Part shown: piece by piece, positions 9,833 through 63,269 of the stretch
Layout of the letters: every line of letters starts with the position of its first letter
How positions within the stretch are numbered: position 1 is the first letter of the stretch
NCBI GenBank assembly: GCA_964367095.1
Contig: CAYIXE010000001.1
Location: forward strand, 2,803-66,802
Direction of reading: 5' to 3'
From: an uncultured Gammaproteobacteria bacterium
Lineage (GTDB): Bacteria; Patescibacteriota; Microgenomatia; UBA10105; UBA927
DNA: 64,000 nucleotides
Position numbers and translations under genes: made by a program
The notes under the pieces: model-generated
What the model saw: the letters and a program-made list of their open reading frames with translations, nothing else
Told to the model about the DNA's origin: nothing
Database searches by the model: none

Positions 9833-9839
9833 ATATCCT

Positions 9840-11113: not shown

Positions 11114-11114
11114 A

Positions 11115-13904: not shown

Positions 13905-13917
13905 AGGCACTACTCTA

Positions 13918-20250: not shown

Positions 20251-20326
20251 AAAGTATGTTATTTTTTCTTTCCCCTGGATAATTTCTTTACAAAAATATC
20301 CTTTCCTGCTCGCAAACTTTTTTGCA

Positions 20327-21170: not shown

Positions 21171-22760
21171 TCACATCAAACAAGTCATTCTTCTTGCATA
21201 TTTACGATGAGCATAACGTACTTTGCGTATACCGAAAGCTAACAAAGAGAACAAACTGAGTAGTGATATCCCGTCGGCCAATAGCCGCAAGGGAGTCTCT
21301 TCAAATCTAACGATTAGTTGATGCTCTCCACTGGGCATATTCACATGGATAATACCGTCAGATTTATAGATGATAGTAGTTTCTTTACCGTCAACATACG
21401 CTTTCCACCCGGGAAAATAGAGTATATTCGCTGAGACAGTGCTTTCTGTTTTAGCATTGATAGTCATCTCATAGGAAAGTGGGGTCTCTTTGTACACATT
21501 TATAGCGGCATCCCCAGTGCTCGCTTGAAACCTTGTAGAAAACCGCTCTTTTTTCCATCCTGTCCATATTGTCGAGAAGCTATTACCTAAAGATGATGTG
21601 CCATCTGTAAATTCACGCCGAGAAAGGTAATGTGCATCATCCCGCTTTTCATACGTCACAGGCTTCATATATGAAAAACTTGCTATAAAAGCCAGAACGG
21701 TGAGCCCCACCATAATCCATCGTGGTGTCACAGTGGTAAGAAGCGCTCCAAGATACCCAGTGGCAATGGTGGTAACCACCAATAATCTCCATGGATACTG
21801 AATATTGCCCATAAGCGGCACGTATCGCCATAATGACAACGAGTACTCTGTCATACCAAAGATTGCAACCCCTACCACACAAAGAACGGGGAAAATTATC
21901 GCTCGTAATGCTTTCTTTCTCACTGCCGCAAAAAAACTGATACATACGATAAGAAGCGACACGATGCCAATTTGATACGACATCTCATCAGCGGTAATCC
22001 CTACACCCGAAAATCCCGTTCCCCACGATGGGAAGAGCAGCTGAAAAAGATCCGGAAAATGATCAGCATACGAAACACTATTTAAACCCACCATAAAACG
22101 GCTCTCAACGAGTGCCGGCAGCCAAAAATACGTTGCTAACCCAATTCCCGTAACAATTACTAAGATGTTGCCTCGTTTGCGATACCATGTATACAAAAAA
22201 ATAATTGGAATAAATATGAGCGCTGTAATATTGTGACTTACTATAATACCGGCTATCCCTATTGCTACACCAAAGGAAACACCATATTCTAACGCTGCAA
22301 GGGTTAACAACACAAAAGAAAGCGCCCACACCTCTCCTACTGATCCCCGTACATAAATATCCACAAACCAATACGGCACCATCGAACATATAATCGTACC
22401 TATAAGTGCTGGCTTTTTTCCAAACACTTTACGTAACCACAAAAAACACCAAAGTATAGCCGTAAGATACCCTGTAGCCAAGGTCAGCTTCACGCTGTCG
22501 ACAAACGTCGCGCCCAATGCATGGAATAAACTTCCTATATAGTTAGGGAATGGATAATGAAAAAGAAAAAGCGGTAAGCCGTATCCACTATTTAAATCAG
22601 GCGCCCATCGAGGAAATACATACCCTTGAGACAACATCTTATAAAACTGCCAGAAACGAATAATATGATACTCTCCGTCATGCGTCGGGATAAATCGAGC
22701 ACCAAAAAGCCATTGCGATGCAAATATTGCCGGAATAAGCGCGAGCAATAAAAATTTCAT
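21171..22760 (-). CDS. GT-C fold membrane glycosyltransferase, short YfhO-like paralog (1 of 5)
   Basis: About 12 TM. First-loop motif THDGEYHIIRFWQF...FPRWAPDLNSGYGLPLFLFHYP. C-terminal soluble domain with YFPGWKAYVDGKE...PSGEHQL. Confidence 0.5.
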   Translation of the reverse strand: MKFLLLALIPAIFASQWLFGARFIPTHDGEYHIIRFWQFYKMLSQGYVFPRWAPDLNSGYGLPLFLFHYPFPNYIGSLFHALGATFVDSVKLTLATGYLTAILWCFLWLRKVFGKKPALIGTIICSMVPYWFVDIYVRGSVGEVWALSFVLLTLAALEYGVSFGVAIGIAGIIVSHNITALIFIPIIFLYTWYRKRGNILVIVTGIGLATYFWLPALVESRFMVGLNSVSYADHFPDLFQLLFPSWGTGFSGVGITADEMSYQIGIVSLLIVCISFFAAVRKKALRAIIFPVLCVVGVAIFGMTEYSLSLWRYVPLMGNIQYPWRLLVVTTIATGYLGALLTTVTPRWIMVGLTVLAFIASFSYMKPVTYEKRDDAHYLSRREFTDGTSSLGNSFSTIWTGWKKERFSTRFQASTGDAAINVYKETPLSYEMTINAKTESTVSANILYFPGWKAYVDGKETTIIYKSDGIIHVNMPSGEHQLIVRFEETPLRLLADGISLLSLFSLLAFGIRKVRYAHRKYARRMTCLM

Positions 22761-23881
22761 CGTTTGTTCACAAAAATTTTATACCAAAAACTATAACAAG
22801 CCAACGGCATCCATGTCACAAAAAGCCGTATCATGGGTCCTGTGCCTCCATATTCTCTCGTCGCTATCCACGGCAAATACCGCAGCATTAATCCAAAGCT
22901 TAACATATACGCGGCTCCATGAATAAAGGATCTTTTGCCCATAGGCAACAGTGATACAAATACAAGAAACCATATGGCGTACCACGGATACATTTCTTCC
23001 CGAAGGGGGGTTAATAAAAAAACGCCAAACATACAAATTCCTACAAACAAAGCACGCTTTTCGTCTGATAAGTGACGAAAAAAAATAAAAAGCGGCAACA
23101 CCACTATAGTTGCTCCTTTCACCAATACCGAGGAGAGCATAAAACCCAATCCCATAATCCATACTGCTAACTGCGTATTACGCCAAAGATAAATTCCATA
23201 AAGAAGGAGAGCCATCATAAATGTATCATTATGGCCAGATACAAATGTCTCAATAATCACAAGCGGATTAAACGCAAAAAATAAGACGTTTCGCACGTTC
23301 TTTGTCATCCGATAAATAAGAACTCCTATCGCTACATACGAGCTGATTACCAACAATTTAAATGTGTACAACGCGACCAATACATTACCAAAAGAAAGTA
23401 CGTACGGAATCCACGTGGCAAGTATCCATATTGGCCCGTACAGTGCGAGTTTATTGGCGGCTCTGGTAAACCCAAGCATCGGCTCACCGAGAAATTCAGT
23501 CGGCATCACAAGATAGGGATTTTCGTGATAAAAAAATGCAACCTTTGCCGTAAGAATGTAGTTAAAAATGTCATGAGACAATGCAGGGTATGATAAGAAA
23601 AAGATACAACCTATCAATAACAAAAATTTCCAATATGTTTTTAGCGTTGGTAGCGTCTGTATCCTAATAATCAATGCATACAAGATAAACAAAATGAAAA
23701 CAAAAATTATATATATAATCGCGGCAACAATCGGCGTTTTATACACGATGTGAGTCAACGAATTGAGGACTGATAATGCCCACGGATGCGTCGAGATACT
23801 AAAATTTGGATCAACGAACCCAAATGAAAAAAGTGAAAATAAGAATCCGACTACTGCAAACCAAACAAGTATTGCTTTCAT
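22757..23881 (-). CDS. polytopic membrane protein, DUF2029/GT87-like putative GT-C glycosyltransferase
   Basis: SYPALSHDIFNYILTAKVAFFYHENPY motif, shared with the genes at 58659 and 31756. About 10 TM. ATGA overlap with the downstream gene. Confidence 0.4.
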   Translation of the reverse strand: MKAILVWFAVVGFLFSLFSFGFVDPNFSISTHPWALSVLNSLTHIVYKTPIVAAIIYIIFVFILFILYALIIRIQTLPTLKTYWKFLLLIGCIFFLSYPALSHDIFNYILTAKVAFFYHENPYLVMPTEFLGEPMLGFTRAANKLALYGPIWILATWIPYVLSFGNVLVALYTFKLLVISSYVAIGVLIYRMTKNVRNVLFFAFNPLVIIETFVSGHNDTFMMALLLYGIYLWRNTQLAVWIMGLGFMLSSVLVKGATIVVLPLFIFFRHLSDEKRALFVGICMFGVFLLTPLREEMYPWYAIWFLVFVSLLPMGKRSFIHGAAYMLSFGLMLRYLPWIATREYGGTGPMIRLFVTWMPLACYSFWYKIFVNKR

Positions 23882-23882
23882 A

Positions 23883-24416
23883 TTATGGATTCATACTATT
23901 CTCCCGTATATTTTGACGAAGCTTTATAGAAGCAGTCAACCGCTCATGAATGGATAACACCGTTGAGGAAATTTTTTCCGGTGTCCATATAAATTCTGGA
24001 GGCAATTCTCTATATAACTTTGTAAGTAACTTCTCGTGAGTGCTCATCTGTTCTTTTAATGATGCAACAACCAATGACATATTTTTCTTTTCCGCTTTTC
24101 CCGATTGAATACGTTCTGGTAGCTGAATAATTTCATTGTCAGAATGATTCAAGGCATCAAATGCCAATAAATATTGTTTGTACTCAAATAATATTTTCGC
24201 TTCAACCAGATATTTATCTGCCATGTTCATGATATGTTTTGCCTGCGCGATACTCCCAAAACTCCAATATCGTTTCACATGATCCAAGACGCGTGATACT
24301 CTATACATTTTATTTCCGGGCATAGCTGATGGATATGGGAGCACATATTCAGAAAATACAAGCGAAGGTGTGGAAAAAATTAAAGTCAAAAGAAAAAATG
24401 AAAGGAAATACTTCAT
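23883..24416 (-). CDS. secreted hypothetical protein with N-terminal signal peptide
   Basis: From the ATG at 24416: MKYFLSFFLLTLIFSTPSLVFSEY..., a signal-peptide-like N-terminus. No recognizable domain. The N-terminal extension in the track is probably untranslated. Confidence 0.45.
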   Translation of the reverse strand: MKYFLSFFLLTLIFSTPSLVFSEYVLPYPSAMPGNKMYRVSRVLDHVKRYWSFGSIAQAKHIMNMADKYLVEAKILFEYKQYLLAFDALNHSDNEIIQLPERIQSGKAEKKNMSLVVASLKEQMSTHEKLLTKLYRELPPEFIWTPEKISSTVLSIHERLTASIKLRQNIRENSMNP

Positions 24417-24417
24417 A

Positions 24418-25188
24418 TCACGATGCAGACATAAACTTTTTGTATGCCATAGGAAAATGGATGCTCGAGAATAGCGCAAACTGAAACCCCTGCCATCCGT
24501 CTACAAACCCCTTATGGCGAAGATAGATCGAAAAAAACGTACCAATCGGTTTGACCAAACAATACGATAAAAATAAATTAAACGTGGGTGTTTTATATAT
24601 CTTTCGCAAATCTAGAGCTGTAAGCGAGGTATACGTGTCTGCCTTTGCCCAGTATTCCTCAAGAGTATTGTTGGTGTAATGCAAAAGCGGTTCTTTAAGC
24701 GTTCCGATCTCTCCATCTATGACAATCTGTTCATGTACTGACTTGCAAGGTAACATGCCTTTACCCCTTTTAAACAATCGAACAAGATAGTCAGGATACT
24801 GTCCGCCTTTGGAAAGCCATTTGCCAATGAAGAAATTTTTGCGCGGCATTTGATACCCGGCATTTGTATTCTTTTTCTTTATTACTGACAGAATTTCGGC
24901 GCGAAGCTTTGGGCTTATGACTTCATCAGCGTCCAACTGCAATATCCAATCGCTCTTGCATGCATCTATGGCATACTGCTTATTGATATGAAACATCGCT
25001 GGATTATCTCGTTTAGAAATGTTCGCACCATACTTCTTTGCAATTTCAAGAGTTCCGTCAGTTGATCCGCCATCGACCAAGACTATTTCATCAACCCACG
25101 AAACTACAGAGGCTAAACATGCTTCTAATTTAATAACTTCGTTATATGTAGCAATTGCCACTGATAATGTTACCTTCTTTTTTGCCAT
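24418..25188 (-). CDS. GT2 glycosyltransferase (WaaE/KdtX-like)
   Basis: LSVAIATYNEVIKLEACL...IVLVDGGSTDGTLEIAKKYGA...LQLDADE. Confidence 0.7.
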   Translation of the reverse strand: MAKKKVTLSVAIATYNEVIKLEACLASVVSWVDEIVLVDGGSTDGTLEIAKKYGANISKRDNPAMFHINKQYAIDACKSDWILQLDADEVISPKLRAEILSVIKKKNTNAGYQMPRKNFFIGKWLSKGGQYPDYLVRLFKRGKGMLPCKSVHEQIVIDGEIGTLKEPLLHYTNNTLEEYWAKADTYTSLTALDLRKIYKTPTFNLFLSYCLVKPIGTFFSIYLRHKGFVDGWQGFQFALFSSIHFPMAYKKFMSAS

Positions 25189-28492: not shown

Positions 28493-28497
28493 GCCTT

Positions 28498-30159: not shown

Positions 30160-30161
30160 GG

Positions 30162-33030: not shown

Positions 33031-33037
33031 AATAGGT

Positions 33038-40122: not shown

Positions 40123-40125
40123 TTA

Positions 40126-41796: not shown

Positions 41797-41810
41797 ATTA
41801 CGTTTCACGA

Positions 41811-43600: not shown

Positions 43601-43609
43601 AAACGTATA

Positions 43610-45775
43610 TTACAACGGTCTAAACGATAATTTTACCGTATGCTCTCCTTTTGGCACCTCTATTGCTTGAAATAAAGTGTTGGTTCTTTTAACTGGCGTA
43701 CTTTTGCCGTCAACCAATGCATGCCAACCCGTATCGTATCTATTAAGGATTACCAAAAGTCGCGTGGTATATGAAACTGTGTTTATTATTAACGCATTAT
43801 CAGAGTAGTACTCAATAGAGGCAAACTCACTTTTTAATGCTATTGGCTCTGTCACATCCTCAATGGGGGCAAGATATACTCGATTCAAGCCTTTATTGTA
43901 TTGATACACTTTTGTTTCACCTTCTTCAAACACTTTCACAAAATCAGGATTATTTATCTCAACGAATGACAATACGTATCGGATATTTAAATATGGAAGT
44001 TTTGGATTAGTAAGATCATGAAGGGTGAATATCCGCTGAAGTGCTGTTGTTTGAGAATTATCTCCATAGAGAAATGATCGATAATCATTAGGATATAGCG
44101 GATCATATCCTTCAATACTCTCTATCCCAAAGTAGCCGCTGGTGTTTGGCGGCAGAATCCTATCATCCATGCTCATGACGCGAAATGGCTTTTTCTGCGC
44201 TTGTAAAAATGAAATTGTTTTCGTCAGCGGAAAAAAATATTCTCTTGGATTAAATGGTGTAAATTTCCAACCAAATCGAAACAAATCAAGAATAGAAAGC
44301 AAAATAATTATTGCGATAAACACACGCCCATCCAACCTCTTGACCAACCTTTTAATCCAAAGTAACCCTCCAAAACCAATCAATAATACAAGAGGGACCA
44401 TAAGATTGCGCTTTGCAACCGCAAGATTTGTAAGCATTAAAGTATCATTTGTGGTGCTTCTGATAACCAATACACCTATAAGGATAATTAAAAATACTAT
44501 TGAAATAATGCTATACGATCTCATCAATCTTGAAAGCTTCTTTGTAAACAACGCCTCAAGACCAAACGCCGCCAAGATGGAAAGCGACAAATCAACGAGT
44601 ACCAATAACCTTGTCGGTTGTAATGACGAAAAAATTGGGATACTCATACTGTAGATCGCATGAGTCACTGGACTCTCAATCATCAAGATGAGGGAAGCGA
44701 TCAAAACGACGCTCCAAAATGTCGCTACCCCTCCCAAAAAAATGGAAGAGACTGCCAAGACAAGCGGAACAATTCCTATATATCCTATGAATTCACCATA
44801 ATTCCATACGCCCCAATAATTAAGTGTCGCCGGATTTCCAAAAAAATCAGGTGCAATAAACTGCACTAAATGTTGCACAGGCAACAACCAGCCAGGTATG
44901 TTTGACAGATCAACAGGTATTGATCGTGCAGTCTCAAGATAAAATCGTGCGAAAGGCACCCATACGACTGACGATGTAAGAAATGCTACTGCAAGCGATA
45001 CGATGATATGTGTTATGAGACGTGTTCGCCCTGCTATACCCCAAAAGCGATACATTCCATACAAAAGTGCTACAAAAAATCCATAGAGCGCAATCTGCAC
45101 ATGCCCTGAAACAATCAATAATGCACCCGATAATCCGAGCCATACAGAAGAAACAATGATGCGAAACCATGACGTTTTTTTATCCTCAAGAAGTATTTTC
45201 GACTTATCAATCCTATAAAGAAGCAGAGGAATAAGACCTGCTGTCCATACAATAGTTCCCCATGTAAGCCACGCTATTGAGAATCCGCAAAATGTCCATA
45301 CGACCGCACCAAAATATGCACTCGTTTGCGACAGTTTCAAATTACCAAGATACAGATATAAAAATAATGCCCCAAAAAATGACTGCACTATAATAACGAG
45401 AATCCACGCGACGGGAAAGTCAAAAAATCTAAAAAGAACATTTGCAGGTTGATACGCGCCAGCTTGAATGTTTGCCGCAAGTGGTGTTCCCAAAAATGAA
45501 TACGGATTCCATCCCGGCATCTCGCCTTTATTCCATTGGTCCATTGCTATTTTTCGCCATGGAATTTGCTGACGCACAGGATCAGTGATAAGAAAGTTTT
45601 TAAACGGTACGCCTCTTGGGTTTTTTGTAGCATACAAATCGCGCCATGGATGAAAGAGACCGACAAGCGTATCTGTAGGGCTGGGAATAAATCCATAAAA
45701 AACACTTTTATAAAAAAATCCTACCACCGTCAGAATAATAATGCTTATTGGAAGTAAGAATAAAAGTCGTTTCAT
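43610..45775 (-). CDS. YfhO-family GT-C glycosyltransferase (long form, 721 aa)
   Basis: PSPTDTLVGLFHPWRD...IPWRKIAMDQWNKGEMPGWNPYSFLGTPLAANIQAGAYQP. C-terminal YDTGWHALVDGKSTPVKR...VPKGEHTVKLSFRP. Confidence 0.55.
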   Translation of the reverse strand: MKRLLFLLPISIIILTVVGFFYKSVFYGFIPSPTDTLVGLFHPWRDLYATKNPRGVPFKNFLITDPVRQQIPWRKIAMDQWNKGEMPGWNPYSFLGTPLAANIQAGAYQPANVLFRFFDFPVAWILVIIVQSFFGALFLYLYLGNLKLSQTSAYFGAVVWTFCGFSIAWLTWGTIVWTAGLIPLLLYRIDKSKILLEDKKTSWFRIIVSSVWLGLSGALLIVSGHVQIALYGFFVALLYGMYRFWGIAGRTRLITHIIVSLAVAFLTSSVVWVPFARFYLETARSIPVDLSNIPGWLLPVQHLVQFIAPDFFGNPATLNYWGVWNYGEFIGYIGIVPLVLAVSSIFLGGVATFWSVVLIASLILMIESPVTHAIYSMSIPIFSSLQPTRLLVLVDLSLSILAAFGLEALFTKKLSRLMRSYSIISIVFLIILIGVLVIRSTTNDTLMLTNLAVAKRNLMVPLVLLIGFGGLLWIKRLVKRLDGRVFIAIIILLSILDLFRFGWKFTPFNPREYFFPLTKTISFLQAQKKPFRVMSMDDRILPPNTSGYFGIESIEGYDPLYPNDYRSFLYGDNSQTTALQRIFTLHDLTNPKLPYLNIRYVLSFVEINNPDFVKVFEEGETKVYQYNKGLNRVYLAPIEDVTEPIALKSEFASIEYYSDNALIINTVSYTTRLLVILNRYDTGWHALVDGKSTPVKRTNTLFQAIEVPKGEHTVKLSFRPL

Positions 45776-46827
45776 ATAGTTTTATAACAAATCCTATCAA
45801 GAAGTTTGTCAAAAGCTATGGTAAACACATCTCTTCCATATGCATGACTTGAATTGAGGGCCTCACTCGATAATCGTGTAAATAATGCCGAATCTTCAAT
45901 TATCCGGAGCGTCTTGTCACAAAGCTCCCCCAACGTATTCCACAACATCCCGTTTTCATTATCCCGTACAATCTCAACTTGCCCGCCGCCTTGATACACG
46001 ATAGGAATAATTCCAGCGCTCATGGCTTCAACAGTCGAAATGCCAAAGTGTTCCATAAATTGCGGATCATTCTCTCCAAAACCAGCCGCGTGCCAATAAA
46101 GAGAAGCTTTTTTATATAACAAAAGAATTTCTGCATGAGAAATATTTGGCAGTAAAGAAATAGCATGACCTACAATCTTCTTCTGCAGGCTATCAAAATA
46201 CTCTTGATCACTCTTAAGAAGCCCTCCCGCCAACACAAGTCGCCACCCGTTAAGTTTTGACTCTATAGCAATAAATGCATCGATGAGTTCTGCCTGTTTT
46301 TTTGCCGTATGAACACTCGTAAATCGTCCGATGGAAAGAATTATCTTTGATTTCTTTGTACTTGAAGTCTTTAATATCCTATCTACCGGCGGATAGATTA
46401 CCGTGACCTTCGAGCGCAATTTCGCATCGAGATTATTTTTCGTAAAGAGCGAATTACATACGATTGCGTTCATACGAGACATATGGAGTTTCGTCGTAGC
46501 AACGACGCTAAATGGTACTTGAAAATGTAAAATATTATATTTTGCAAGTGAGAAAGGAATACTGCCATCACTCAGGAAAAAAATAAGATCATACTCTTTC
46601 GTTTTTATGGCTTTTAAAAGTGCGTTTTTGCCAGAAAAAATATTAGGTACGACCGAAATGCGCGATAAATCAAGTCCAAATCTATCCTCACTTTTTTTCA
46701 CTATCGAAAAATCATCCCAAAAAATAGACACGTCGTTATTTTTTGACCAATGACTGGCAAGTGTTAACGTGTAGCGTTCCCCACCACCAAAACCATCAAG
46801 GTATGGATTATAAAAGCCTATTTTCAT
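45772..46827 (-). CDS. GT4 (GT-B fold) glycosyltransferase
   Basis: KIGFYNPYLDGFGGGERY N-terminus. FGISTVEAMSAGIIPIV C-terminal E-x7-E-like region. Confidence 0.65.
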   Translation of the reverse strand: MKIGFYNPYLDGFGGGERYTLTLASHWSKNNDVSIFWDDFSIVKKSEDRFGLDLSRISVVPNIFSGKNALLKAIKTKEYDLIFFLSDGSIPFSLAKYNILHFQVPFSVVATTKLHMSRMNAIVCNSLFTKNNLDAKLRSKVTVIYPPVDRILKTSSTKKSKIILSIGRFTSVHTAKKQAELIDAFIAIESKLNGWRLVLAGGLLKSDQEYFDSLQKKIVGHAISLLPNISHAEILLLYKKASLYWHAAGFGENDPQFMEHFGISTVEAMSAGIIPIVYQGGGQVEIVRDNENGMLWNTLGELCDKTLRIIEDSALFTRLSSEALNSSHAYGRDVFTIAFDKLLDRICYKTI

Positions 46828-49129: not shown

Positions 49130-49134
49130 ATTTG

Positions 49135-49932
49135 CTATTCGCCTGCCCCGCGTATCCCGCCAACGGCGGGAGAAGTGGGGTTTTTTTGTTGCCGCTCATA
49201 GAGCTTTGCGTAAGTGATAAACATGCTAAACGCTTGATACATGCTCTCTATAACTCCGGCCGTCCCGACTCTCCATCCGCCTCTTTTTATATAGGAATCA
49301 TAAAATCCTGTTAACATAACACGAAATATGCGCCACCATACGATAGGTGGATGATTGGCTTTCAAACGAAGCCCTGCTTCAATTATTGACCACTTGTTTG
49401 TCTTTTCTACCATAGAGGTAAGTGTTCGATGCGTATCGTGTCGCAAGACTCCAACAAGATCACCTACTGTCCCTCGTATCAGTGGTGTTTCATGCACTTC
49501 CCCCACCCAACAATCGAGATCTGATCTTTTCATCAAACGAACCATATACTCAGAGTCGTAAAACTCAACTCCAAGGTATGTATTTACACGTTGAATCCTA
49601 TATGCGCTGTATTGGCGCTTCGCGCCTTTTACTGCTTCTAAAATACTCAATTGCAGCTTCTCAGAGACGAGTTCATCAGCATCAATATATAAAAGCCATT
49701 CTGCTTTCGATTCTTGGTATGCCTGATTTCTTAAATCTGCAAATGATGAAAGATCGAGTGAAATAACGCGGGCATTTGCTTTTGCTGCTACGACTTTTGT
49801 AGCATCAGTAGATTTATTATCTATGACGATAATTTCATCACAAAAAGACACCGATTGGATACATTCATCTATCCTTTCCTGCTCATCTTTAGCAAGAATT
49901 ATAGCAGAGATTCCTGATAATTTATCACTCAT
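49135..49932 (-). CDS. GT2 glycosyltransferase (WaaE/KdtX-like)
   Basis: ISAIILAKDEQERIDECIQSV...IIVIDNKSTDAT...YIDADE. Start at the ATG at 49932 (MSDKLSG...). Confidence 0.65.
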   Translation of the reverse strand: MSDKLSGISAIILAKDEQERIDECIQSVSFCDEIIVIDNKSTDATKVVAAKANARVISLDLSSFADLRNQAYQESKAEWLLYIDADELVSEKLQLSILEAVKGAKRQYSAYRIQRVNTYLGVEFYDSEYMVRLMKRSDLDCWVGEVHETPLIRGTVGDLVGVLRHDTHRTLTSMVEKTNKWSIIEAGLRLKANHPPIVWWRIFRVMLTGFYDSYIKRGGWRVGTAGVIESMYQAFSMFITYAKLYERQQKNPTSPAVGGIRGAGE

Positions 49933-50827
49933 ATCTTTTTCCCCATTTACCAAAAAGCGCATCCAAAACCGCGCGTTTTTTTATAGCACTGCCAGATGCC
50001 AAAAATCGTACTGCCTCACGAATAAGCGCAAATTTGGTTTTAAAAGGCGCGAAACGCATGCCTACCAATAATCTGTTTCTGGTCATGTAATACTCGTGAA
50101 GCTTGCTTCCAGACCCGCCCGATGACCCTGCGTTTACATGCCAAATAATAGACGATGGGAAATAACGCAAATTAAATCCGAATCGCTTTACTGCCAAACA
50201 ATAATCCAAATCCTCAAGGTATAAATAATACTTCTCGTCCAGTAATCCTACTTTCTTTATCACTTCTTTAGAAATCATAAATGAACATCCTGTCACAAAG
50301 GGCGTATCACCCGCTTTATCGTATTGTCCGTGATCCACCTCATCTACACCATTGTGTGATGCGTACATATTATCCCAATCCACAATTCCCCCGGCATACC
50401 AAAATACTCTTCCTTGCTCTTTTTTAGTATAGCGCTCTTTGTGATATTCATGCCCTGCTTGAAAATATATCTTTGAACCTACGACACCTACTGATTCGTC
50501 CTCAAAAGCGTTAAGAATGGTCAATGCATTTAGGTCGACAATTGTATCGTTATTAAGAAGCCATACATAATCAGCACCTCTCAACAGTGCTTCGCGTATA
50601 CCAACATTATTTCCACCGGTAAAACCTAGATTATCGGATAATTTAATAATTCTAGCCCAAGGATGTGCAGTTTTAATAGCGAAAACTGAATCATTCGTCG
50701 ATCCATTGTCAACCACGATAGTGTCAACTACCGCGTCTGTTTTTCTCATCGCTTTAATCGACGCCAAGCACGCAATCGTGTCTTTTTTCCCATTCCAATT
50801 GACGATAACTATAAAAACATGCTTCAT
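49925..50827 (-). CDS. GT2 glycosyltransferase (rhamnosyltransferase-like)
   Basis: MKHVFIVIVNWNGKKDTIACL...IVVDNGSTNDS...LSDNLGFTGGNNVGI. ATGA overlap with the downstream gene. Confidence 0.7.
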   Translation of the reverse strand: MKHVFIVIVNWNGKKDTIACLASIKAMRKTDAVVDTIVVDNGSTNDSVFAIKTAHPWARIIKLSDNLGFTGGNNVGIREALLRGADYVWLLNNDTIVDLNALTILNAFEDESVGVVGSKIYFQAGHEYHKERYTKKEQGRVFWYAGGIVDWDNMYASHNGVDEVDHGQYDKAGDTPFVTGCSFMISKEVIKKVGLLDEKYYLYLEDLDYCLAVKRFGFNLRYFPSSIIWHVNAGSSGGSGSKLHEYYMTRNRLLVGMRFAPFKTKFALIREAVRFLASGSAIKKRAVLDALFGKWGKRYE

Positions 50828-51744
50828 AGAGGACATATGCGAATAAACCGACGCTTAATTTGATACCACAAAGAACGAATAGGATTTGAAGCATCGCGCA
50901 TTTTTGAGGTTAACATCCAGTACGATACATCCTTTCCCTGACGTGATAGTTCATCAGTCACGTCAAAAAGTTTAATTTCCTTTTCTCTAAACCCTTCTCT
51001 TTCCCACAGTTTTACAAATACTATAAACATATAAAATCCCTGAAGCATGGAAAGTACAAGTCCATGAAGTCCGTCTTTATATCCTCTCTGGGCAAAATAA
51101 ATTTTCACAAAATCCCGCAAAGGAAAACGCAGTGCGTCGTACCATACGACGTTGTAGCCTGAGGCAATAAACTTTTCGACCTCGCTTACCGTATAAATAT
51201 GTTCCATTTTATATAAAAACTGCTCAATGGAGTGATAATTATGATGAATAAATGGCTCATCGAGTGTTTCTGTTTGGCCATCTACATGAAGATATTCATG
51301 GACATGTTTTTCTGGGAACTTTCCTTTTCCTTTTCGAAATAACCGAAGCTGCGGGTCAGGCCACCATACACCATGACGTATCCATGTACCAAAAATAATA
51401 TTTTTGCGAGGTATCCAATACCCCGAAATAGCCGGATTATTTTCATGAAGGACTTTACCAATTGCCAAAACGAGATCTTTCGTCAGTTCTTCATCGTCAT
51501 CTAAATTAAGTATCCAATCAGTCGTCACTTTGGTAAATCCATAGTTTTTATTACTATTTAACATGAGGCTATTCTCTCGATCTATATGCGTTGCATTATA
51601 TTTTTGGGAAATAAGAAGTGTTTCCATGTCTTTCGCACTGGAAACGACAATAATCTTTGCATGGAGGGGCGCGACGGACTTTAAGCATCGGTCCAACTGA
51701 AACGGTCTTTTGTATGTAGAAACGACCACGGTACAATTTGTCAT
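50824..51744 (-). CDS. GT2 glycosyltransferase
   Basis: CTVVVSTYKRPFQLDRCL...NLDDDEE...RLFRKGKGKF. Confidence 0.65.
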   Translation of the reverse strand: MTNCTVVVSTYKRPFQLDRCLKSVAPLHAKIIVVSSAKDMETLLISQKYNATHIDRENSLMLNSNKNYGFTKVTTDWILNLDDDEELTKDLVLAIGKVLHENNPAISGYWIPRKNIIFGTWIRHGVWWPDPQLRLFRKGKGKFPEKHVHEYLHVDGQTETLDEPFIHHNYHSIEQFLYKMEHIYTVSEVEKFIASGYNVVWYDALRFPLRDFVKIYFAQRGYKDGLHGLVLSMLQGFYMFIVFVKLWEREGFREKEIKLFDVTDELSRQGKDVSYWMLTSKMRDASNPIRSLWYQIKRRFIRICPL

Positions 51745-51745
51745 A

Positions 51746-53188
51746 TTAGCTTCTCAATGATTTTATAAAGCCTAGAACGCGACTTTTATCTGTAAGATAT
51801 ATACACCCCGTGTAAAGTATAACACCCGAAAGTCCGACAAAAAAAAGTGTTACGTATGTACTCGGAACAATTTTTAGAATGGTCACATACCACAGCGCTT
51901 GTATCAAAGATGATACGACTGCACTAGAGATATTTCTTATAAATGTAAACGGCACGATCTTTTGCATCTCTTTTACAACAATCCCTATTGTAAATGTGAT
52001 AAGAAAAATAGAAAATGCGACGCCTTGGAATCCAAAAAAGTGAATAAATATCACCGTAACGACCCATGTAAGGGTAGTCCACATCACCATCAAAAGAAGT
52101 GTTGTTTTAATCTTTCCTATTGCATTGAGTGCATTGGTAAGAGGCGTTGTCAGTCCTGCAATCGCCGCGGCTCCGACGAAAAAATAAAATGACAAAAGTG
52201 CTGGTTCCCATTTCGTATACTTAGGTATCAAATGCACAAGCGGTCGGACGAAAAATAGAAGTGCTATCGAGATAGGAAAAATGGTGAGAGATAATCCGTA
52301 AATAGTTTTCTCAAGTGCTTTCCCCAAAAGTATTTTGTCATGCTGGATACGGGAAAATGCCGGAAAGGTGACGCGTATGACGCTATCCATGATAAGGCGC
52401 AAAGGAACCTCTGCCCACTTTTTCGCCCACCCCAAATATCCGACTTCAGAAAAAGGGAGCGCCTTCCCCAAAAAGATAATCAATAAATCATCTTTCACCA
52501 CAGCTAAAAATGAATTCATCTGAAACGGTATACCGAACTTTAAAAGTTTATGCGCCACACTTCTTGATATCCCAAAGCTAGGCATCCAAGGCCAAACGAT
52601 ATATGCCGTTATCACACCTAATATACCCCGACATAATACGGCCCATGAAAAGCTTGCCACACCAAGCCCCTTCCATGCCAAAAATACTGCAACGACATAA
52701 AATCCAAGTGTCTCGACAATCGTGGGGATCACGAGCCGATTAAAAGCCAAGGACCGCTCCATAAGTATTGATGGAATAGTTTTTAACGATGATAAGAAAA
52801 ATGACACGACGAGAGCGCGAAACAGCCACACGCCTGATGCATCCAGCATATAAAAATCGCCTATCTTATATGAAAAAAATAAGGCAATGGTTACAGCAGA
52901 ACCTACCAGAAGCTGCTGGATGGTAAAGGTCGTCTGAAGATCTTCTGTAGTAAGATCATCCTTTTTTTGCACGAGGGCGGCGGCCAATCCTATATCTGAA
53001 AAGTATCCCAAAAACGAAATAACAGCAGACACGACATAGTACACACCAAATATCGAAGGAGTCAAAAGAAGTGTCAAAAGAAACGTCGCAACAAATCCTA
53101 CAATCTGCAACGTAAAAGTTCTTGCGGTAAGAGCCACCATCCCTTTTACTGACTTTGATTTAATGTCTTTTATATCAGTGTCTGTCAT
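51746..53188 (-). CDS. Wzx-type oligosaccharide flippase (MOP/PST family)
   Basis: 480 aa, about 12-14 TM. N-terminus SVKGMVALTARTFTLQIVGFVATFLLTLLLTPSIFGVYYVVSAVISFLGYFSDIGLAAALVQ. Confidence 0.7.
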   Translation of the reverse strand: MTDTDIKDIKSKSVKGMVALTARTFTLQIVGFVATFLLTLLLTPSIFGVYYVVSAVISFLGYFSDIGLAAALVQKKDDLTTEDLQTTFTIQQLLVGSAVTIALFFSYKIGDFYMLDASGVWLFRALVVSFFLSSLKTIPSILMERSLAFNRLVIPTIVETLGFYVVAVFLAWKGLGVASFSWAVLCRGILGVITAYIVWPWMPSFGISRSVAHKLLKFGIPFQMNSFLAVVKDDLLIIFLGKALPFSEVGYLGWAKKWAEVPLRLIMDSVIRVTFPAFSRIQHDKILLGKALEKTIYGLSLTIFPISIALLFFVRPLVHLIPKYTKWEPALLSFYFFVGAAAIAGLTTPLTNALNAIGKIKTTLLLMVMWTTLTWVVTVIFIHFFGFQGVAFSIFLITFTIGIVVKEMQKIVPFTFIRNISSAVVSSLIQALWYVTILKIVPSTYVTLFFVGLSGVILYTGCIYLTDKSRVLGFIKSLRS

Positions 53189-53915
53189 ACTGTAAATTTT
53201 TCCAGGGACGCGTCATAAACAGACGGTACAAACCCTTAAGATCGCCGAATGCAGTTTTTAGAACTCGTACTGTGGACCCAGGATTATCTACCCACCGAAC
53301 CGGTTCTTCATAAATGCGTATCCCGCTTTTTTCGGCAAGAACAAGTAATTCTGTATCAAAAAACCACTCGTTATCTCTAATTCTTGGAAGAATTGTGCGG
53401 GCAATCGTCGAGGACATGGCTTTAAATCCACACTGTGCATCCGAAAAATTAACAAAAAAGAATAGTTTAATGAGGATAATATACATTTTTGATGTAATAG
53501 TTCGAAGCGCTGATCTGCCGTACACAAGTGATCCAGCCGCATTTCGCGTCCCGATTGAGATGTCGTATCCTCGGGAAAGCGAATGAATCAGAGCTGGTAA
53601 ATGCCTAAGATCGCTTGATAAATCAATATCCATATAACAAACAAATCGTGCCGTGCTTTGAAGCCAGGCTTTTTTCACTGCTCGGCCTCTTCCTTTTTCT
53701 TTAAGGTGAATGCTTGAGACGATGGCGTATTTTTTTGTCATCGCATTGGCTATTTCATACGTTTTATCGGTTGATGCATTATCAGCAATTACGATTGTTG
53801 TTTTATACTCTTTAAGATGTGTGGTAACAAAAAAGACAAGCGTCTCCACACTTGAAGAAAGATCCTCTTCTTCGTTGTACACCGGCAATATTATGTCAAG
53901 CGTTATTTTTTTCAT
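53175..53915 (-). CDS. GT2 polyprenyl-phosphate sugar synthase-like (DPM1-like)
   Basis: LDIILPVYNEEEDL...IVIADNASTDKTYEIA...KGRGRAVKKAW. Confidence 0.65.
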   Translation of the reverse strand: MKKITLDIILPVYNEEEDLSSSVETLVFFVTTHLKEYKTTIVIADNASTDKTYEIANAMTKKYAIVSSIHLKEKGRGRAVKKAWLQSTARFVCYMDIDLSSDLRHLPALIHSLSRGYDISIGTRNAAGSLVYGRSALRTITSKMYIILIKLFFFVNFSDAQCGFKAMSSTIARTILPRIRDNEWFFDTELLVLAEKSGIRIYEEPVRWVDNPGSTVRVLKTAFGDLKGLYRLFMTRPWKNLQYDRH

Positions 53916-58621: not shown

Positions 58622-58658
58622 AGCCTCATTATATAAAATAAGAGACAACACAAGCAAA

Positions 58659-59807: not shown

Positions 59808-59824
59808 AATTTTATAATTTGGGC

Positions 59825-60577
59825 CTACGTATACAGACCGCGTAACGCATGTATGCGAATACGAATAATATCAATAAATCCTCGCAAAGAGTCCTTTAGG
59901 GGATTGACGCGGCGTGTTTCTACATAATGCCATTCGACAGGAACTTCTTTGATCTTATACCCAAATTTCTTTCCTAAAAACAACACTTCTATATCAAACC
60001 CGGCTGTCACCATAGGGCCGTCAACTTTTGAAATACTCGTATACAACGCTAATTTTTGAAATATTTTACTTGAAACTTCACGTTTGAAGGCTTTAAATCC
60101 GCACTGTGTGTCGGTGATTCCCTTTAAACCTAAAATAAGGGATCTTAGAAACATAAATCCTCGGGCCATGATGACCCTAGACACTGGCGCCCCCTGTCTA
60201 TCGCGATTTCTTGATCCTATAACTATGTCATATCCTTTATCAAAAAACGGCAATAATTTTTCTAACTCTTCAATCGGTGTTGCCTGATCAAGGTCTGAAA
60301 ACAAAACAATATCGCCTTTGGCCGAAAGCATCCCTGCTATCACCGTACCCGCTTTTCCAACATGTCTGTTATGAAGGATTGTAAATCCTCTATTGGCTTT
60401 GCCGAAAATATCAAGAAGCTTTGGGGACTGATCCATTGATCCATCATCGACAATGATTACCTCCCATAAAAATGATTGTCGGTCAAGATACCGCGCCACT
60501 TTATCCAGTGACCCTAATCGAATATTGGTCTCTTCATTAAAACACGGTATGACAACCGACAAATATGGCTTTATCAT
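59825..60577 (-). CDS. GT2 polyprenyl-phosphate sugar synthase-like (DPM1-like)
   Basis: LSVVIPCFNEETNI...VIIVDDGSMDQSPKLL...GKAGTVIAGMLSAKGDIVLFSDLDQATPIEE. ATGA overlap with the upstream gene. Confidence 0.7.
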   Translation of the reverse strand: MIKPYLSVVIPCFNEETNIRLGSLDKVARYLDRQSFLWEVIIVDDGSMDQSPKLLDIFGKANRGFTILHNRHVGKAGTVIAGMLSAKGDIVLFSDLDQATPIEELEKLLPFFDKGYDIVIGSRNRDRQGAPVSRVIMARGFMFLRSLILGLKGITDTQCGFKAFKREVSSKIFQKLALYTSISKVDGPMVTAGFDIEVLFLGKKFGYKIKEVPVEWHYVETRRVNPLKDSLRGFIDIIRIRIHALRGLYT

Positions 60578-62148: not shown

Positions 62149-62156
62149 GAAAAATA

Positions 62157-63269
62157 TTACTTTGACTTCCAAATTACTCTGGAATACATAATGTAATTCC
62201 AAATAAGACCTATACTGACGCCAATAATATACCAAGGAAAATATGAATCTCTTCCCGTAATGTTTGTCCCAAATAACACAGTTCCTGATTGGATTAAAAG
62301 CCCGCCAAGGGCTGCTAAGTTAAACTGGATAAACTTCGGTAGCAGGGCAACTCCGGAAATCTTACGTGCATGAAATGTCCACGTGTTGTTTAATATAAAA
62401 TTAGAAATGATTGCAAACTCAGCACCACTGGCACTCCCCATGGCTGGATGAAACCCAAAAAACACAAATATCTCAAGAATGGCTGTATTTATCAAAAATC
62501 CGATACTGCCAACGATTGCAAATCTTGGGAATGTTCCTTTCATAATCGCTTTATACCGGGATGAAAAAACAAACATAATAATGCTCATAATGTATTCAAG
62601 TGGTGCTATTTTAGAGCGTCCGAACCTTCTATCAGTAAAGATAATCGGCACTTCCCCCACATGTGCGCCATTTTGTATCGATGTATAAAGAAATGCGATC
62701 TGAAAAACATATCCGCTATACGGCGAAACGATAGTTTTCGCTTTTTGAAAATAATTTGCATTAAAAGCACGATATCCGCCAGTCCAATCATGAACTTGAG
62801 TCTTTCCTAAACCGAAACGGACAAATGTGTTTCCGATCACGCTGTAAATTTTTCGATGAAGTCCCCAATTAGCAGGTATTGAACCGCCGGGGATATATCT
62901 GCTTCCCACGACGAAATCATTTCCTTTTTTAAGTTTTTGTATAAATTGAGGCAGTACCTTAGGATCATGCGACATATCCGCATCCATCTGAATAATAATA
63001 TCGGCCTTCAGATGTAAAACCGCGTACGTCATGCCGGCAAGAAGCGCTTTGCCTAAGCCCTCTTTTTTTCTCGACAGAATATGAATATTTTTATGCGATT
63101 TTTGAAAGGCCGCTGCTAGATCTTTGGTGCCATCCGGCGACATATCATCAACGACTAAGATATGAAATGTCATATCAGGAATCGTTTTAAGTACGGCTGA
63201 TACGGATTCCAACATGGTAGTAATGTTTTCCCGCTCGTTGTACGTCGGTAAAATTATGACCGTGTTCAT
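62157..63269 (-). CDS. GT2 polyprenyl-phosphate sugar synthase with C-terminal GtrA-like membrane domain (Ppm1/dolichol-phosphate-mannose synthase architecture)
   Basis: VIILPTYNERENI...ILVVDDMSPDGTKDLA...GLGKALLAGM...IQMDADMSHDP. C-terminus FAIVGSIGFLINTAILEIFVFFGF...NNTWTF is GtrA-like. Confidence 0.7.
   Translation of the reverse strand: MNTVIILPTYNERENITTMLESVSAVLKTIPDMTFHILVVDDMSPDGTKDLAAAFQKSHKNIHILSRKKEGLGKALLAGMTYAVLHLKADIIIQMDADMSHDPKVLPQFIQKLKKGNDFVVGSRYIPGGSIPANWGLHRKIYSVIGNTFVRFGLGKTQVHDWTGGYRAFNANYFQKAKTIVSPYSGYVFQIAFLYTSIQNGAHVGEVPIIFTDRRFGRSKIAPLEYIMSIIMFVFSSRYKAIMKGTFPRFAIVGSIGFLINTAILEIFVFFGFHPAMGSASGAEFAIISNFILNNTWTFHARKISGVALLPKFIQFNLAALGGLLIQSGTVLFGTNITGRDSYFPWYIIGVSIGLIWNYIMYSRVIWKSK

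Follow-up and report, generated by a model that had tools for sequence, protein, structure and literature searches.

The 64,000-nt stretch analysed here (the window) comes from a Patescibacteria genome of the Microgenomates group, obtained from Hainich-aquifer groundwater, and raises the question of what such an organism would build with 19 polytopic membrane proteins encoded within some 42 kb. The genome had been suspected to be reduced, which is confirmed; related closed chromosomes measure 0.76-1.0 Mb. Considering the enzymes, their order and their relatives, the locus probably encodes a multi-component system for transmembrane glycosylation, much enlarged, in a bacterium of the Microgenomates group (Patescibacteria). 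A literature search found no published description of such a locus.

All 19 large ORFs (374-776 aa, designated here by their left coordinate) were found where the first-pass annotation had placed them, between positions 21171 and 63269, an interval of 42,099 nt of which GT-C genes take 31,671 nt (75%). The tight coupling reported for these genes was also observed, eight gene junctions having the 4-nt ATGA overlap. A hydropathy scan gave 6-13 membrane segments for each of the 19 ORFs, and both homology and fold identified them as GT-C enzymes and not transporters, each being linked to this fold by Pfam, by a Pfam-positive paralog or orthologue, or by a structure model. Gathering scores were reached for PMT_2/PMT by 26849, 30162, 38416, 57092 and 60574, for YfhO by 36158, 43610, 46808 and 53896, for PTPS_related by 34437 and 53896, and for GT87 by 31756 and 58659. 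Three further ORFs (21171, 28498 and 40126) have sub-threshold Pfam scores, yet each has a paralog in one of the families at 31-34% identity (E 7e-69 to 8e-102). The top structural neighbours were ALG12, ALG9, ALG3, ALG6, Pmt1/2/4 and STT3B, and every polytopic ORF of the window could be assigned either to GT-C or to the MOP flippases.

Features of the window. GT-C families: A, short YfhO/PTPS_related; B, long YfhO; C, PMT_2; C2, divergent PMT_2/ArnT-like; D, GT87/MptA_B-like.
Feature	Position	Strand	Evidence or remark
Left arm, nucleotide-sugar and transferase genes	156..15021	-	
Dehydratases/epimerases	156-1115, 7236-8333, 8305-9351, 11115-12050	-	
Glc-1-P cytidylyltransferase	1094-1879	-	
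GT2, TM-anchored	1885, 12025	-	
GT4	2926, 6073, 13918	-	
Methyltransferases	4032, 13068	-	
Fic gene	5026-6078	+	
Trp-repressor-like gene	9449-9832		
DegT aminotransferase	9926-11146	-	
GT2-Wzx-GT2 triplet	15036..17762	-	outside 21171-63269
DPM-like GT2	15036-15839	-	PpgS and ArnC rank high (NCBIfam)
Divergent MOP flippase	15826-17085	-	homologues carry PF01943/PF13440
DPM-like GT2	17073-17762	-	DPMS 5MLZ E 3.5e-19, then ArnC, GtrB
GT4 adjoining core block	19189..20355	-	Glycos_transf_1 95.6 bits
GT-C, A, 529 aa	21171..22760	-	YfhO C-terminal 26.3 bits, below gathering score; 31% identity to 25170, E 2e-72; 11 TM; THDG after TM1
GT-C, D, 374 aa	22757..23881	-	30% identity to 58659, E 1e-43; no Pfam match (local copy)
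DUF5667-like helical protein, secreted or membrane-anchored	23883..24479	-	DUF5667 26.3 bits, below gathering score
Soluble GT2, GmaR/SunS-like, not DPM1-like	24418..25188	-	Pfam GT2; PDB best GmaR E 1.6e-13, SunS
GT-C, A, 560 aa	25170..26852	-	
GT-C, C, 547 aa	26849..28492	-	PMT_2 26.5 bits, at gathering score; DE motif
GT-C, C, 553 aa	28498..30159	-	PMT_2 24.8 bits; 34% identity to 26849, E 8e-102
GT-C, PMT_2/PMT (C), 541 aa	30162..31787	-	PMT_2 49.9 bits, PMT 42.8 bits
GT-C, GT87-like, 437 aa	31756..33069	-	GT87 28.2 bits (gathering score 25), PMT_2 23.6 bits
GT-C, C2, 497 aa	33038..34531	-	
GT-C, A, 574 aa	34437..36161	+	PTPS_related 40.3 bits; true start probably 3' of listed GTG
GT-C, B, 776 aa	36158..38488	+	YfhO 64 bits
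GT-C, PMT_2/PMT (C), 568 aa	38416..40122	+	PMT_2 36.7 bits, PMT 24.2 bits
GT-C, C, 556 aa	40126..41796	+	TMEM260-like and PMT_2 22.3 bits each, below gathering scores; 31% identity to 26849, E 7e-69
SAM-dependent methyltransferase	41811..42680	-	Methyltransf_23 92.8 bits
Ordinary GT2, MftF/EpsD-like	42677..43600	-	
GT-C, B, 721 aa	43610..45775	-	YfhO 45.4 bits
GT4 (GT-B fold), cytoplasmic	45772..46827	-	Glycos_transf_1 76.5 bits
GT-C, B, 773 aa	46808..49129	-	YfhO 103.9 bits
Three ordinary GT2s (span 49135..51744)	49135-49962, 49925-50836, 50824-51744	-	Pfam GT2
Wzx/MOP-family flippase, 480 aa	51746..53188	-	Polysacc_synt_3 160 bits; NCBIfam MOP flippase and O-glycosylation Wzx models
Soluble GT2, candidate polyprenyl-P-sugar synthase	53175..53915	-	NCBIfam top: PgfS, ArnC, AglJ, Dol-P-hexose transferase
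GT-C, A, 554 aa	53896..55560	-	PTPS_related 50.4 bits, YfhO 42.7 bits
GT-C, A, 512 aa	55557..57095	-	28% identity to 25170, E 9e-55; 13 TM; no Pfam match
GT-C, PMT_2/PMT, 531 aa	57092..58687	-	PMT_2 50.4 bits, PMT 22.8 bits
GT-C, D, 382 aa	58659..59807	-	GT87 27.6 bits
Soluble GT2, candidate polyprenyl-P-sugar synthase	59825..60577	-	PDB best ArnC E 5e-15, GtrB, DPMS; NCBIfam first ranks PgfS, ArnC
GT-C, C2 (divergent PMT_2), 553 aa	60574..62235	-	PMT_2 36.9 bits
GT2 with fused GtrA/DPMS-type 4-TM domain	62157..63269	-	Pfam GT2 and GtrA_DPMS_TM
NAD-dependent sugar epimerase/dehydratase, cut at window end	63282..63992	-	GDP_Man_Dehyd 185.7 bits; full length 320 aa in L006

The earlier grouping into five short and three long YfhO/PTPS_related, five close PMT_2, three divergent PMT_2 and three GT87/MptA_B-like enzymes was reproduced, and the identity between paralogs, estimated before at 30-40%, was measured at 24-34%. 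Two ORFs fall outside the BLAST clusters and were placed by Pfam alone, 31756 having no paralog match at E<=1e-3 and 57092 a single borderline one (E 1e-5). For the D family, the assignment relies on weak Pfam scores (27-28 bits) and on precomputed PF26314 (MptA_B_family) matches, which are carried by the syntenic orthologues of 22757 and by a syntenic 382-aa protein matching 58659 on contigs of the same population; a profile of D-family orthologues matched no PDB sequence. D24, D104 and the NPY motif do not vary across 13 orthologues of 22757. The acidic first-loop motifs described for these families (DE, T-H/D-D-G, GD(Q/E)GR and HD..NY...NPY) were indeed located directly after TM1 in each of them. 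Since this Asp-containing motif follows TM1 and a basic N-terminus precedes it, the positive-inside rule predicts that the motif should face outward.

Eight or nine polyprenyl-phosphate-sugar synthases had been counted to serve these enzymes, but only five GT2s (15036, 17073, 53175, 59825 and 62157) resemble such synthases, the remaining seven of the window being ordinary GT2s unlike them. Homology nevertheless agrees with the presence of DPM1/ArnC/GtrB-like GT2s interleaved with GT-C genes. The protein encoded at 62157 aligns over its full length with the P. furiosus Dol-P-Man synthase 5MLZ (E 3.6e-38) and is, judged by its sequence, an archaeal DPMS-type polyprenyl-P-hexose synthase. In NCBIfam, no GT2 match comes near its curated cut-off; for the three ordinary GT2s of 49135..51744, the first ranks were of rhamnosyltransferase, MftF or SunS type, not DPM type. 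The hydropathy scan showed no convincing membrane anchor in four of the five candidate synthases.

Both flippases named in the first-pass annotation are of the Wzx/MOP type; 51746 lies inside the interval and 15826 to the left of its start. Likewise, only one of the three methyltransferases attributed to the cluster (41811) is within it, 4032 and 13068 being also left of position 21171. The DUF5667-like protein has a signal-peptide-like N-terminus and its gene is conserved within the core block, while the Trp-repressor-like and Fic genes are probably not members of the system. Altogether, two Wzx/MOP flippases, five GT4, seven ordinary GT2 and the nucleotide-sugar enzymes argue that a sizeable lipid-linked stage in the cytoplasm precedes flipping. 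Consequently, the proposal of an extracytoplasmic assembly by GT-C enzymes and their synthases is supported in its components, but not in its purely extracytoplasmic framing.

The conservation of the locus was assessed in 51 loci, each 20 kb or longer, of genomes that represent species; where titles are informative, they name Gottesman-, Woese- and Levybacteria. The arrangement recurs among these Microgenomates-group relatives, which points to an elaborate surface-glycan pathway outside the cell membrane. The core order A-GT2-DUF5667-D-A is kept in 35 of the 51 loci when one extra gene after the GT2 is tolerated, and there are 5-9 GT-C genes per 21.6 kb (median 8). A DPM-like GT2 adjoins Wzx in 38 of them, 21 have the complete GT2-Wzx-GT2 triplet, and 39 hold an ORF, mostly after the core block, whose best window match is the GT4 at 19189. 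Syntenic orthologues are 63-92% identical in a close relative (L002) and mostly 42-56% in a distant genome (L004), with 35% for 36158 and 28% for 33038; the orthologue of 31756 in a distant genome shows 42% identity. Set against the 24-34% between paralogs, these values show the duplications to be old and the copies to be maintained; the gene-for-gene conservation of the block in Gottesman-, Woese- and Levybacteria, as these relatives are labelled, similarly indicates that the paralogs are ancient. Divergence from L002 is mosaic, since 25170 is 63% identical as compared to 89-92% for 21171, 26849 and 30162 of the same block. The periphery of the block differs among genomes, 33038-type and other PMT_2 genes being present in some and absent from others and relatives carrying extra polytopic families. 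The window resembles a junction of two or more conserved modules that have separate Wzx and GT2 sets.

From these elements a pathway can be proposed in which the nucleotide-sugar enzymes would supply activated sugars, from which the cytoplasmic GT4 and ordinary GT2 enzymes would build a lipid-linked (or lipid-anchored) core, while the five DPM1/ArnC/GtrB-like GT2s would load polyprenyl phosphate with single sugars. These lipid intermediates would cross the membrane via the two Wzx/MOP flippases and possibly also the GtrA-like domain of 62157. On the outer face, the 19 GT-C enzymes of at least four families would then move sugars from polyprenyl-P donors to envelope acceptors, each donor being common to several enzymes that diverge in acceptor or linkage. 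Inferred here are the chemistry of the donors, what the flippases carry, whether the acceptor is a glycan, a lipoglycan or a protein, whether the steps follow in sequence, and likewise the separate sugar or linkage first suggested for every enzyme.

A sharper version of this pathway, and the view first taken of the locus, is that the 19 GT-C enzymes act successively on a single conserved glycan, lipid-linked or lipid-anchored, giving a lineage-wide defined envelope polymer. Such sequential assembly on one glycan is carried out by ALG3/9/12/6/8/10 in the ER lumen and by PimE, MptA/MptB/MptC, Emb and Aft in mycobacteria, where many transferases are served by few donor synthases, as would be 19 by five here. 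Also in its favour are the one-to-one orthologues, which keep their order throughout the Microgenomates group whereas O-antigen and capsule loci vary with serotype, and the match of GT4, Wzx, DPM-like GT2 and GT-C to the parts of the ER pathway. Step order cannot be read from the sequence, however, the periphery is variable, and relatives have additional polytopic families. The two or more apparent modules with separate Wzx and GT2 sets fit more than one product, and this version is possible, though doubtful. It is equally possible, and as doubtful, that independent sets of GT2, flippase and GT-C each add one sugar to a different pre-existing polymer (a teichoic-acid-like polymer, wall polysaccharide or glycolipid), like CsbB/GtcA/YfhO, GtlA/GtlB and CsdAB/CD/EF of Firmicutes. 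YfhO and PMT_2 are the GT-C families of these Firmicutes decoration systems (PMC8035078), two separable modules each contain Wzx and GT2 genes, and the mosaic divergence between close relatives would suit surface variation. On the other hand, known modules pair synthase and GT-C 1:1, a ratio that 19 GT-C for five synthases does not approach, the core order persists throughout the group, and no TagF/LtaS-type backbone-polymer gene was found in the window.

Protein O-glycosylation, in which the PMT/PMT_2-type and perhaps other enzymes would modify Ser/Thr-rich regions in proteins that are secreted or displayed at the surface (pili, S-layer, adhesins), is modelled on actinobacterial Pmt or streptococcal PgfS/PgfM, the latter system glycosylating Ser/Thr-rich regions (PMC12041528), and seems rather unlikely. 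As in Pgf and actinobacterial Pmt, a PgfS-like GT2, GT-C membrane enzymes and an epimerase are found in a single locus, and PgfS is among the top NCBIfam ranks of 53175, 59825 and 62157; these scores, however, all fall well short of the 500-bit PgfS cut-off, and the GT-C genes are far more numerous. Improbable in turn is an ordinary Wzx/Wzy capsule or O-antigen-type locus with GT-C enzymes adding only side branches and with PGT, Wzy and chain-length genes elsewhere or undetected. The operon-like block of two Wzx, five GT4, seven ordinary GT2, methyltransferases and a full nucleotide-sugar enzyme set resembles such loci, and Wzy proteins are notoriously difficult to detect with profiles. Against it, no window ORF matches Wzy_C, Wzz, Bac_transf or Glycos_transf_4, in line with the reported absence of Wzy, Wzz and a priming phosphoglycosyltransferase, and none of these was present in about 10 kb of right and 4 kb of left flank. 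Neither the window nor the flanks showed a ligase, LCP or oligosaccharyltransferase. In 79 related loci, the recurrent ORFs without assignment that were sampled proved to be more polytopic proteins (some PMT_2) and a methyltransferase, with no match to PGT, Wzy or LCP models. The predominance of GT-C genes and the conserved order free of serotype-like variability also set this locus apart from Wzx/Wzy loci, and the expanded transmembrane glycosylation system remains the preferred reading.

Among known systems, three-component transmembrane glycosylation is represented by GtrA/GtrB/Gtr(type), CsbB/GtcA/YfhO, GtlA/GtlB, GacI/GacJ/GacK/GacL and ArnC/ArnEF/ArnT (PMC8035078; PMC11127046). These share with the locus a GT2 polyprenyl-P-sugar synthase, a flippase (GtrA- or Wzx-type) and a polytopic GT-C whose extracytoplasmic loop is acidic, as well as the GT-C families YfhO and PMT_2. 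GacK, a Wzx-type flippase for C55-P-monosaccharide, and GacI, a soluble GT-A needing the membrane partner GacJ (PMC8035078), are precedents for its Wzx-type flippases and soluble GT2s. Each of those modules has one GT-C, in contrast to 19 of at least four families with five synthases over 42 kb here; moreover, this locus lacks a free-standing GtrA and its order is kept across the Microgenomates group instead of varying between strains. The assembly of mycobacterial and corynebacterial lipomannan, lipoarabinomannan and arabinogalactan, with Ppm1, PimE, MptA/B/C, EmbA/B/C and AftA-D, is also among the closest known systems. In the ER lumen of eukaryotes, glycans are assembled with the DPM1/ALG5 synthases, RFT1, ALG3/9/12/6/8/10, PMTs and STT3. 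Although the locus is bacterial, with no STT3/PglB-type oligosaccharyltransferase Pfam match in the window and no ALG7-type priming enzyme seen, it shares with ER-lumen assembly both logic and parts list, its GT-C enzymes having ALG, Pmt and STT3B proteins as structural neighbours and 62157 being a full-length DPMS homologue.

The window, which is nearly all coding, has a G+C content of about 36-42% and is read predominantly from the minus strand. Between 21171 and 63269, 31 genes were found (each named by the left-end window coordinate of its ORF), 19 of which encode proteins of 374-776 aa with 6-13 predicted membrane segments; these 19 cover 31,671 of 42,099 nt, and ATGA overlaps occur at 8 junctions. 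Their number agrees with the approximately 19 GT-C glycosyltransferase paralogs proposed for this segment in the first-pass annotation, and BLAST clustering together with Pfam reproduced the families distinguished there (see the table of features). The identity between paralogs, on the other hand, had been put at 30-40%, and BLAST measured 24-34% within families.

Twelve of the 19 candidates reach a Pfam gathering score, and the Pfam GT-C clan includes PTPS_related, PMT, PMT_2 and GT87 (PMC7801869). Sub-threshold matches to the same families were obtained for 21171, 28498 and 40126, which share 31-34% identity with Pfam-positive paralogs (E 7e-69 to 8e-102); the YfhO score of 21171 is 26.3, under the gathering score of 28.5. 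Four candidates have no Pfam match, among them 55557, which is 28% identical to 25170 (E 9e-55), and 22757, which is 30% identical to 58659 (E 1e-43). For 22757, the local Pfam copy gave no match and GT87 was matched in just 2 of 13 orthologues, and precomputed PF26314 (MptA_B_family) matches are carried by its syntenic orthologues. No Pfam YfhO match is present in 25170, 34437 and 55557, which were placed by paralogy, PTPS_related or fold, and two genes outside the BLAST clusters, 31756 (no match) and 57092 (borderline match), were placed by Pfam only. Searches of the PDB with single sequences (46808, 30162 and 15826) returned no useful match and a profile of GT87/MptA_B-like orthologues matched no PDB sequence, PimE included; fold comparison was needed in their place.

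In each family an acidic motif directly follows the first transmembrane segment, which is itself preceded by a basic N-terminus. The motif Asp is invariant in 22 orthologues of the short YfhO family and in 13 of the GT87/MptA_B-like family. Judged from their sequences, the proteins correspond to GT-C enzymes as polytopic transferases with a DxD-like acidic motif in a predicted extracytoplasmic loop. As Pfam and paralogy tie the polytopic ORFs to GT-C families, the view that they are transporters instead is not borne out, the only polytopic proteins outside GT-C being two MOP/Wzx flippases.

Features of the window by gene (left-end coordinate) or position
Feature	Genes or positions	Strand	Remarks
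GT-C family A, short YfhO/PTPS_related	21171, 25170, 34437, 53896, 55557		5 genes; motif T-H/D-D-G
GT-C family B, long YfhO	36158, 43610, 46808		3 genes
GT-C family C, close PMT_2	26849, 28498, 30162, 38416, 40126		5 genes; motifs DE + GKDEYG
GT-C family C2, divergent PMT_2	33038, 60574, 57092		3 genes; motif GD(Q/E)GR
GT-C family D, GT87/MptA_B-like	22757, 58659, 31756		3 genes; motifs VDPN + HD..NY...NPY
Pfam-positive, PMT_2/PMT	26849, 30162, 38416, 57092, 60574		at or above gathering score
Pfam-positive, YfhO (PF09586)	36158, 43610, 46808, 53896		64, 45.4, 103.9 and 42.7 bits, respectively; gathering score 28.5
Pfam-positive, PTPS_related	34437, 53896
Pfam-positive, GT87	31756, 58659		28.2 and 27.6 bits, barely over gathering score 25
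Candidate synthase	62157		GT2 fused with a GtrA/DPMS transmembrane domain (GtrA_DPMS_TM); end-to-end match to Pyrococcus Dol-P-Man synthase 5MLZ, E 3.6e-38
Candidate synthases	17073, 59825		GT2; nearest solved relatives DPMS, ArnC, GtrB
Candidate synthases	53175, 15036		GT2; top NCBIfam ranks ArnC, PgfS, AglJ, PpgS, Dol-P-hexose transferase, far under curated cut-offs
Soluble GT2 paralog trio	24418-25188, 49135-49962, 50824-51744	-	grouped
Other GT2	42677, 49925		NCBIfam ranks MftF/EpsD and rhamnosyltransferase/GlfT1 models
GT2-Wzx-GT2 triplet	15036-17762	-
Divergent flippase	15826-17085		12 TM
Region resembling the second recurring module	41811-57095
Fic/DOC-domain protein	5026-6078	+	sole plus-strand gene of the left arm; amid glycosyltransferase and methyltransferase genes
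AAA_14/DUF4143 ATPase	17759-19120	-	between GT4 and the GT2-Wzx-GT2 triplet
815-bp gap region	20327-21183	-	sole sizeable intergenic gap in the cluster
83-aa ORF	20327-20578	-
HicA toxin	20685-20903	-	Pfam 60.7 bits
DUF7387 partner, probably antitoxin	20896-21183	-	upstream of HicA
DUF5667-like protein	23883-24479	-	small; signal-peptide-like N-terminus, helical body

Five of the 12 GT2 genes resemble polyprenyl-phosphate-sugar synthases and, by homology, encode candidate GT-A/GT2 enzymes making polyprenyl-phosphate-monosaccharides. Since the other seven are not synthase-like, the 8-9 synthases previously counted are too many. The two C-terminal helices of the TM-anchored 1885 and 12025 had made them candidates for GtrB-type synthases. 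Both were dismissed, their PDB matches being chondroitin synthase, GalT1 and other ordinary GT2s, with no DPMS, ArnC or GtrB. The soluble GT2s of the 24418 type were likewise dismissed, the closest solved relatives of 24418 being GmaR, which transfers O-GlcNAc to flagellin in Listeria (E 1.6e-13), and SunS, a peptide S-glycosyltransferase; a SunS model also ranked high in NCBIfam for 49135. The kinship of 24418 is a hint that proteins or peptides are glycosylated in the cytoplasm, rather than of lipid-sugar synthesis.

Two flippases had been announced and both were recovered as Wzx/MOP-type proteins. For 51746, a Polysacc_synt_3 score of 160 bits makes the Wzx assignment clear. The other flippase, 15826, has no Pfam or NCBIfam match. 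Its homologues, which reach about 50% identity, are annotated as oligosaccharide flippases and contain PF01943/PF13440 (Polysacc_synt/Polysacc_synt_3); it is therefore assigned by homology as a divergent MOP/Wzx family member, and the alternatives of an undetected Wzy or of one more GT-C, the twentieth, were dismissed on the same domains and names. Flippases of the Wzx type are thus encoded with the system, together with the GtrA_DPMS_TM domain of 62157. Among 51 related loci, a DPM-like GT2 adjoins a MOP/Wzx gene in 38 and the GT2-Wzx-GT2 triplet is present in 21. By analogy with what has been proposed for GacK, the Wzx protein of the triplet may be dedicated to polyprenyl-P-monosaccharides.

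No Pfam match to Wzy_C, Wzz, Bac_transf or Glycos_transf_4 was found on any window ORF, nor was an initiating phosphoglycosyltransferase (PGT) matched in the window ORFs or the readable flanks, and all polytopic ORFs were assigned to GT-C or MOP. Ten recurrent unassigned ORFs from 79 related loci were also scanned and revealed no PGT, Wzy or LCP; seven had no Pfam match, two matched PMT_2 and the tenth was a methyltransferase. Apart from the methyltransferase group, they are polytopic. Of the components of a Wzx/Wzy-dependent locus, the window and its flanks thus contain Wzx, with neither PGT nor Wzy and Wzz/PCP, so that an adjacent canonical cluster does not account for the locus as far as this could be followed. 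Genes for synthesis of an acceptor backbone (LTA, WTA, O-antigen, wall polysaccharide or lipid A) were not recognised in the window either.

The remaining genes of the window comprise five GT4, the expected three methyltransferases, a DegT aminotransferase, a Glc-1-P cytidylyltransferase and several 4,6-dehydratase/epimerase genes; no tRNA or Rfam family was found in it. The DUF5667-like protein could serve as a GT-C acceptor, scaffold or chaperone. In syntenic relatives the short YfhO gene is followed directly by GT4, and the HicA/DUF7387 region consequently looks like an insertion. The AAA_14/DUF4143 ATPase is 99.3% identical to its copy in a close relative (L002), the neighbouring genes being 85-95% identical; a distant relative (L004) has a different 364-aa gene at this position, and just 2 of the 51 large loci from relatives contain a homologue, which suggests from sequence comparison a recently exchanged or mobile gene.

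Flanking sequence was taken from contigs sharing window proteins, the longest on record being about 84.5 kb. The right flank carries additional nucleotide-sugar genes, namely an epimerase, UDP-glucose dehydrogenase, RmlD-/RmlB-like genes and a nucleotidyltransferase, then the housekeeping genes TsaD, Sua5 and TsaE, and the left flank a dTDP-sugar isomerase, another GT2 and a methyltransferase. Exact-sequence matches came from 0.1-um-filtered groundwater metagenomes of Hainich well H52. More than 2,000 homologues of 25170 were present among the candidates scored, the few with a named source being Patescibacteria, Microgenomates-group or Gottesmanbacteria records. Relatives were scanned at one genome per species, which gave 198 loci. 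Of these, 79 were fetched, and synteny was counted on the 51 of at least 20 kb. Informative titles among the loci were those of Gottesman-, Woese- and Levybacteria (and one Parcubacteria), that is, of the Microgenomates group. Many species-representative MAG records with the same arrangement (L016, L018, L024, L025 and others) are titled 'uncultured Gammaproteobacteria bacterium' and appear to be mislabelled.

These 51 loci contain 5-9 GT-C genes per 21.6 kb (median 8), and the order A-GT2-DUF5667-D-A was found in 35 of them, one intervening gene being permitted. A second recurring module, A-A-GT2-Wzx-GT2-GT2-A-B-GT2-GT4-B-GT2-GT2, has its counterpart in the window, which thus joins at least two conserved modules. 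Identity between syntenic orthologues is 63-92% with the close relative and mostly 42-56% with the distant one (a 1.02-Mb genome; 35% for 36158 and 28% for 33038), compared with 24-34% between paralogs. It follows that the duplications are older than the split between the lineages and that every copy was kept. Divergence from the close relative is mosaic across 21171-36161, with 63.5% identity for 25170, 68.5% for 23883, 74% for 31756 and 76% for 34437, and 89-92% for 21171, 26849 and 30162; this pattern could stem from replacement of alleles or from diversifying selection acting on certain GT-C genes. Other polytopic families that lack a Pfam match recur in L025-L053, each in 4-21 loci (for example L027:17699-18943 and L031:14935-16377), and one contains a 'DGEHYLNIAKYGY' motif somewhat like that of GT-C enzymes of the PIG-V type. 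The window thus probably shows only part of the GT-C repertoire of the Microgenomates group.

How the GT-C enzymes share the work can be read in several ways. They might act in sequence on one product, which is a tentative reading; the conserved gene order speaks for a defined product. The presence of two modules and a periphery that varies, on the other hand, favour more than one product, as would be the case if the enzymes formed parallel decoration modules, an equally tentative arrangement. Glycosylation of proteins by the PMT_2 group would be slightly less likely. PMT is matched at or over the gathering score by 30162, 38416 and 57092, and each of the five close PMT_2 paralogs has the DE motif; MIR and PMT_4TMC domains gave no Pfam match in any ORF, and the PMT-like enzymes are by their predicted domains of the PMT_2 type, not canonical GT39 members. 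A speculative proposal, built on the reading of one product, is that Microgenomates-group bacteria with genomes of about 1 Mb assemble one conserved, highly complex envelope glycan or lipoglycan almost wholly outside the membrane, with some 20 GT-C enzymes acting in order and supplied by five polyprenyl-P-sugars.

All components come from known families, and their genes are already in public MAGs, where they are sparsely annotated. The interest of the locus rests on the density of GT-C genes, on their conservation in a genome of reduced size and on the fact that these organisms have no known glycoconjugate. Patescibacteria account for a large part of bacterial diversity and, to our knowledge, almost nothing is known of their envelope chemistry; in the open-access literature no paper was found on a GT-C expansion or such a locus in this group, an absence that is not proof. 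Should the genome be similar in size to those of closed relatives (0.76-1.0 Mb), about 32 kb would be spent on the 19 GT-C genes and roughly 70 kb on the whole glycan locus, an outlay which, with the same genes and order in Gottesman-, Woese- and Levybacteria, argues for an important, conserved and undescribed surface glycoconjugate. The locus also provides a parts list for heterologous reconstitution (five candidate lipid-sugar synthases, two Wzx flippases and 19 transferases of at least four families) and natural material on what determines donor and acceptor specificity in the YfhO, PTPS_related and PMT_2 families, whose members are for the most part not known to have a function. With the recurrent GT2-Wzx-GT2 triplet, the idea that a Wzx-type protein can flip polyprenyl-P-monosaccharides becomes open to testing.

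In multi-component transmembrane glycosylation, a GT-A enzyme makes a C55-P-sugar, a GtrA- or Wzx-type flippase transfers it and a GT-C enzyme works on the outer side of the membrane (PMC8035078; PMC11127046). The present locus resembles these systems in that its Wzx-type flippase is precedented by GacK and its soluble GT2 variants by GacI/GacJ, and differs from them in having 19 GT-C genes for five synthases in one block, with a block order conserved across the Microgenomates group. Alongside the extracytoplasmic GT-C steps, the pathway would also include a cytoplasmic lipid-linked stage, implied by the GT4, ordinary GT2 and Wzx proteins. In the ER-lumen ALG pathway and in mycobacterial LM/LAM and arabinogalactan assembly, GT4 steps in the cytoplasm and flipping come first, and a few donors then serve a large number of GT-C enzymes. 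The same logic may apply here, as an analogy and not as membership in those pathways. If the proposed envelope glycan exists, it would be a bacterial counterpart of ER-lumen ALG or of mycobacterial LAM/arabinogalactan assembly inherited as a single block, and may be central to Microgenomates surface biology, including any cell-cell attachment.
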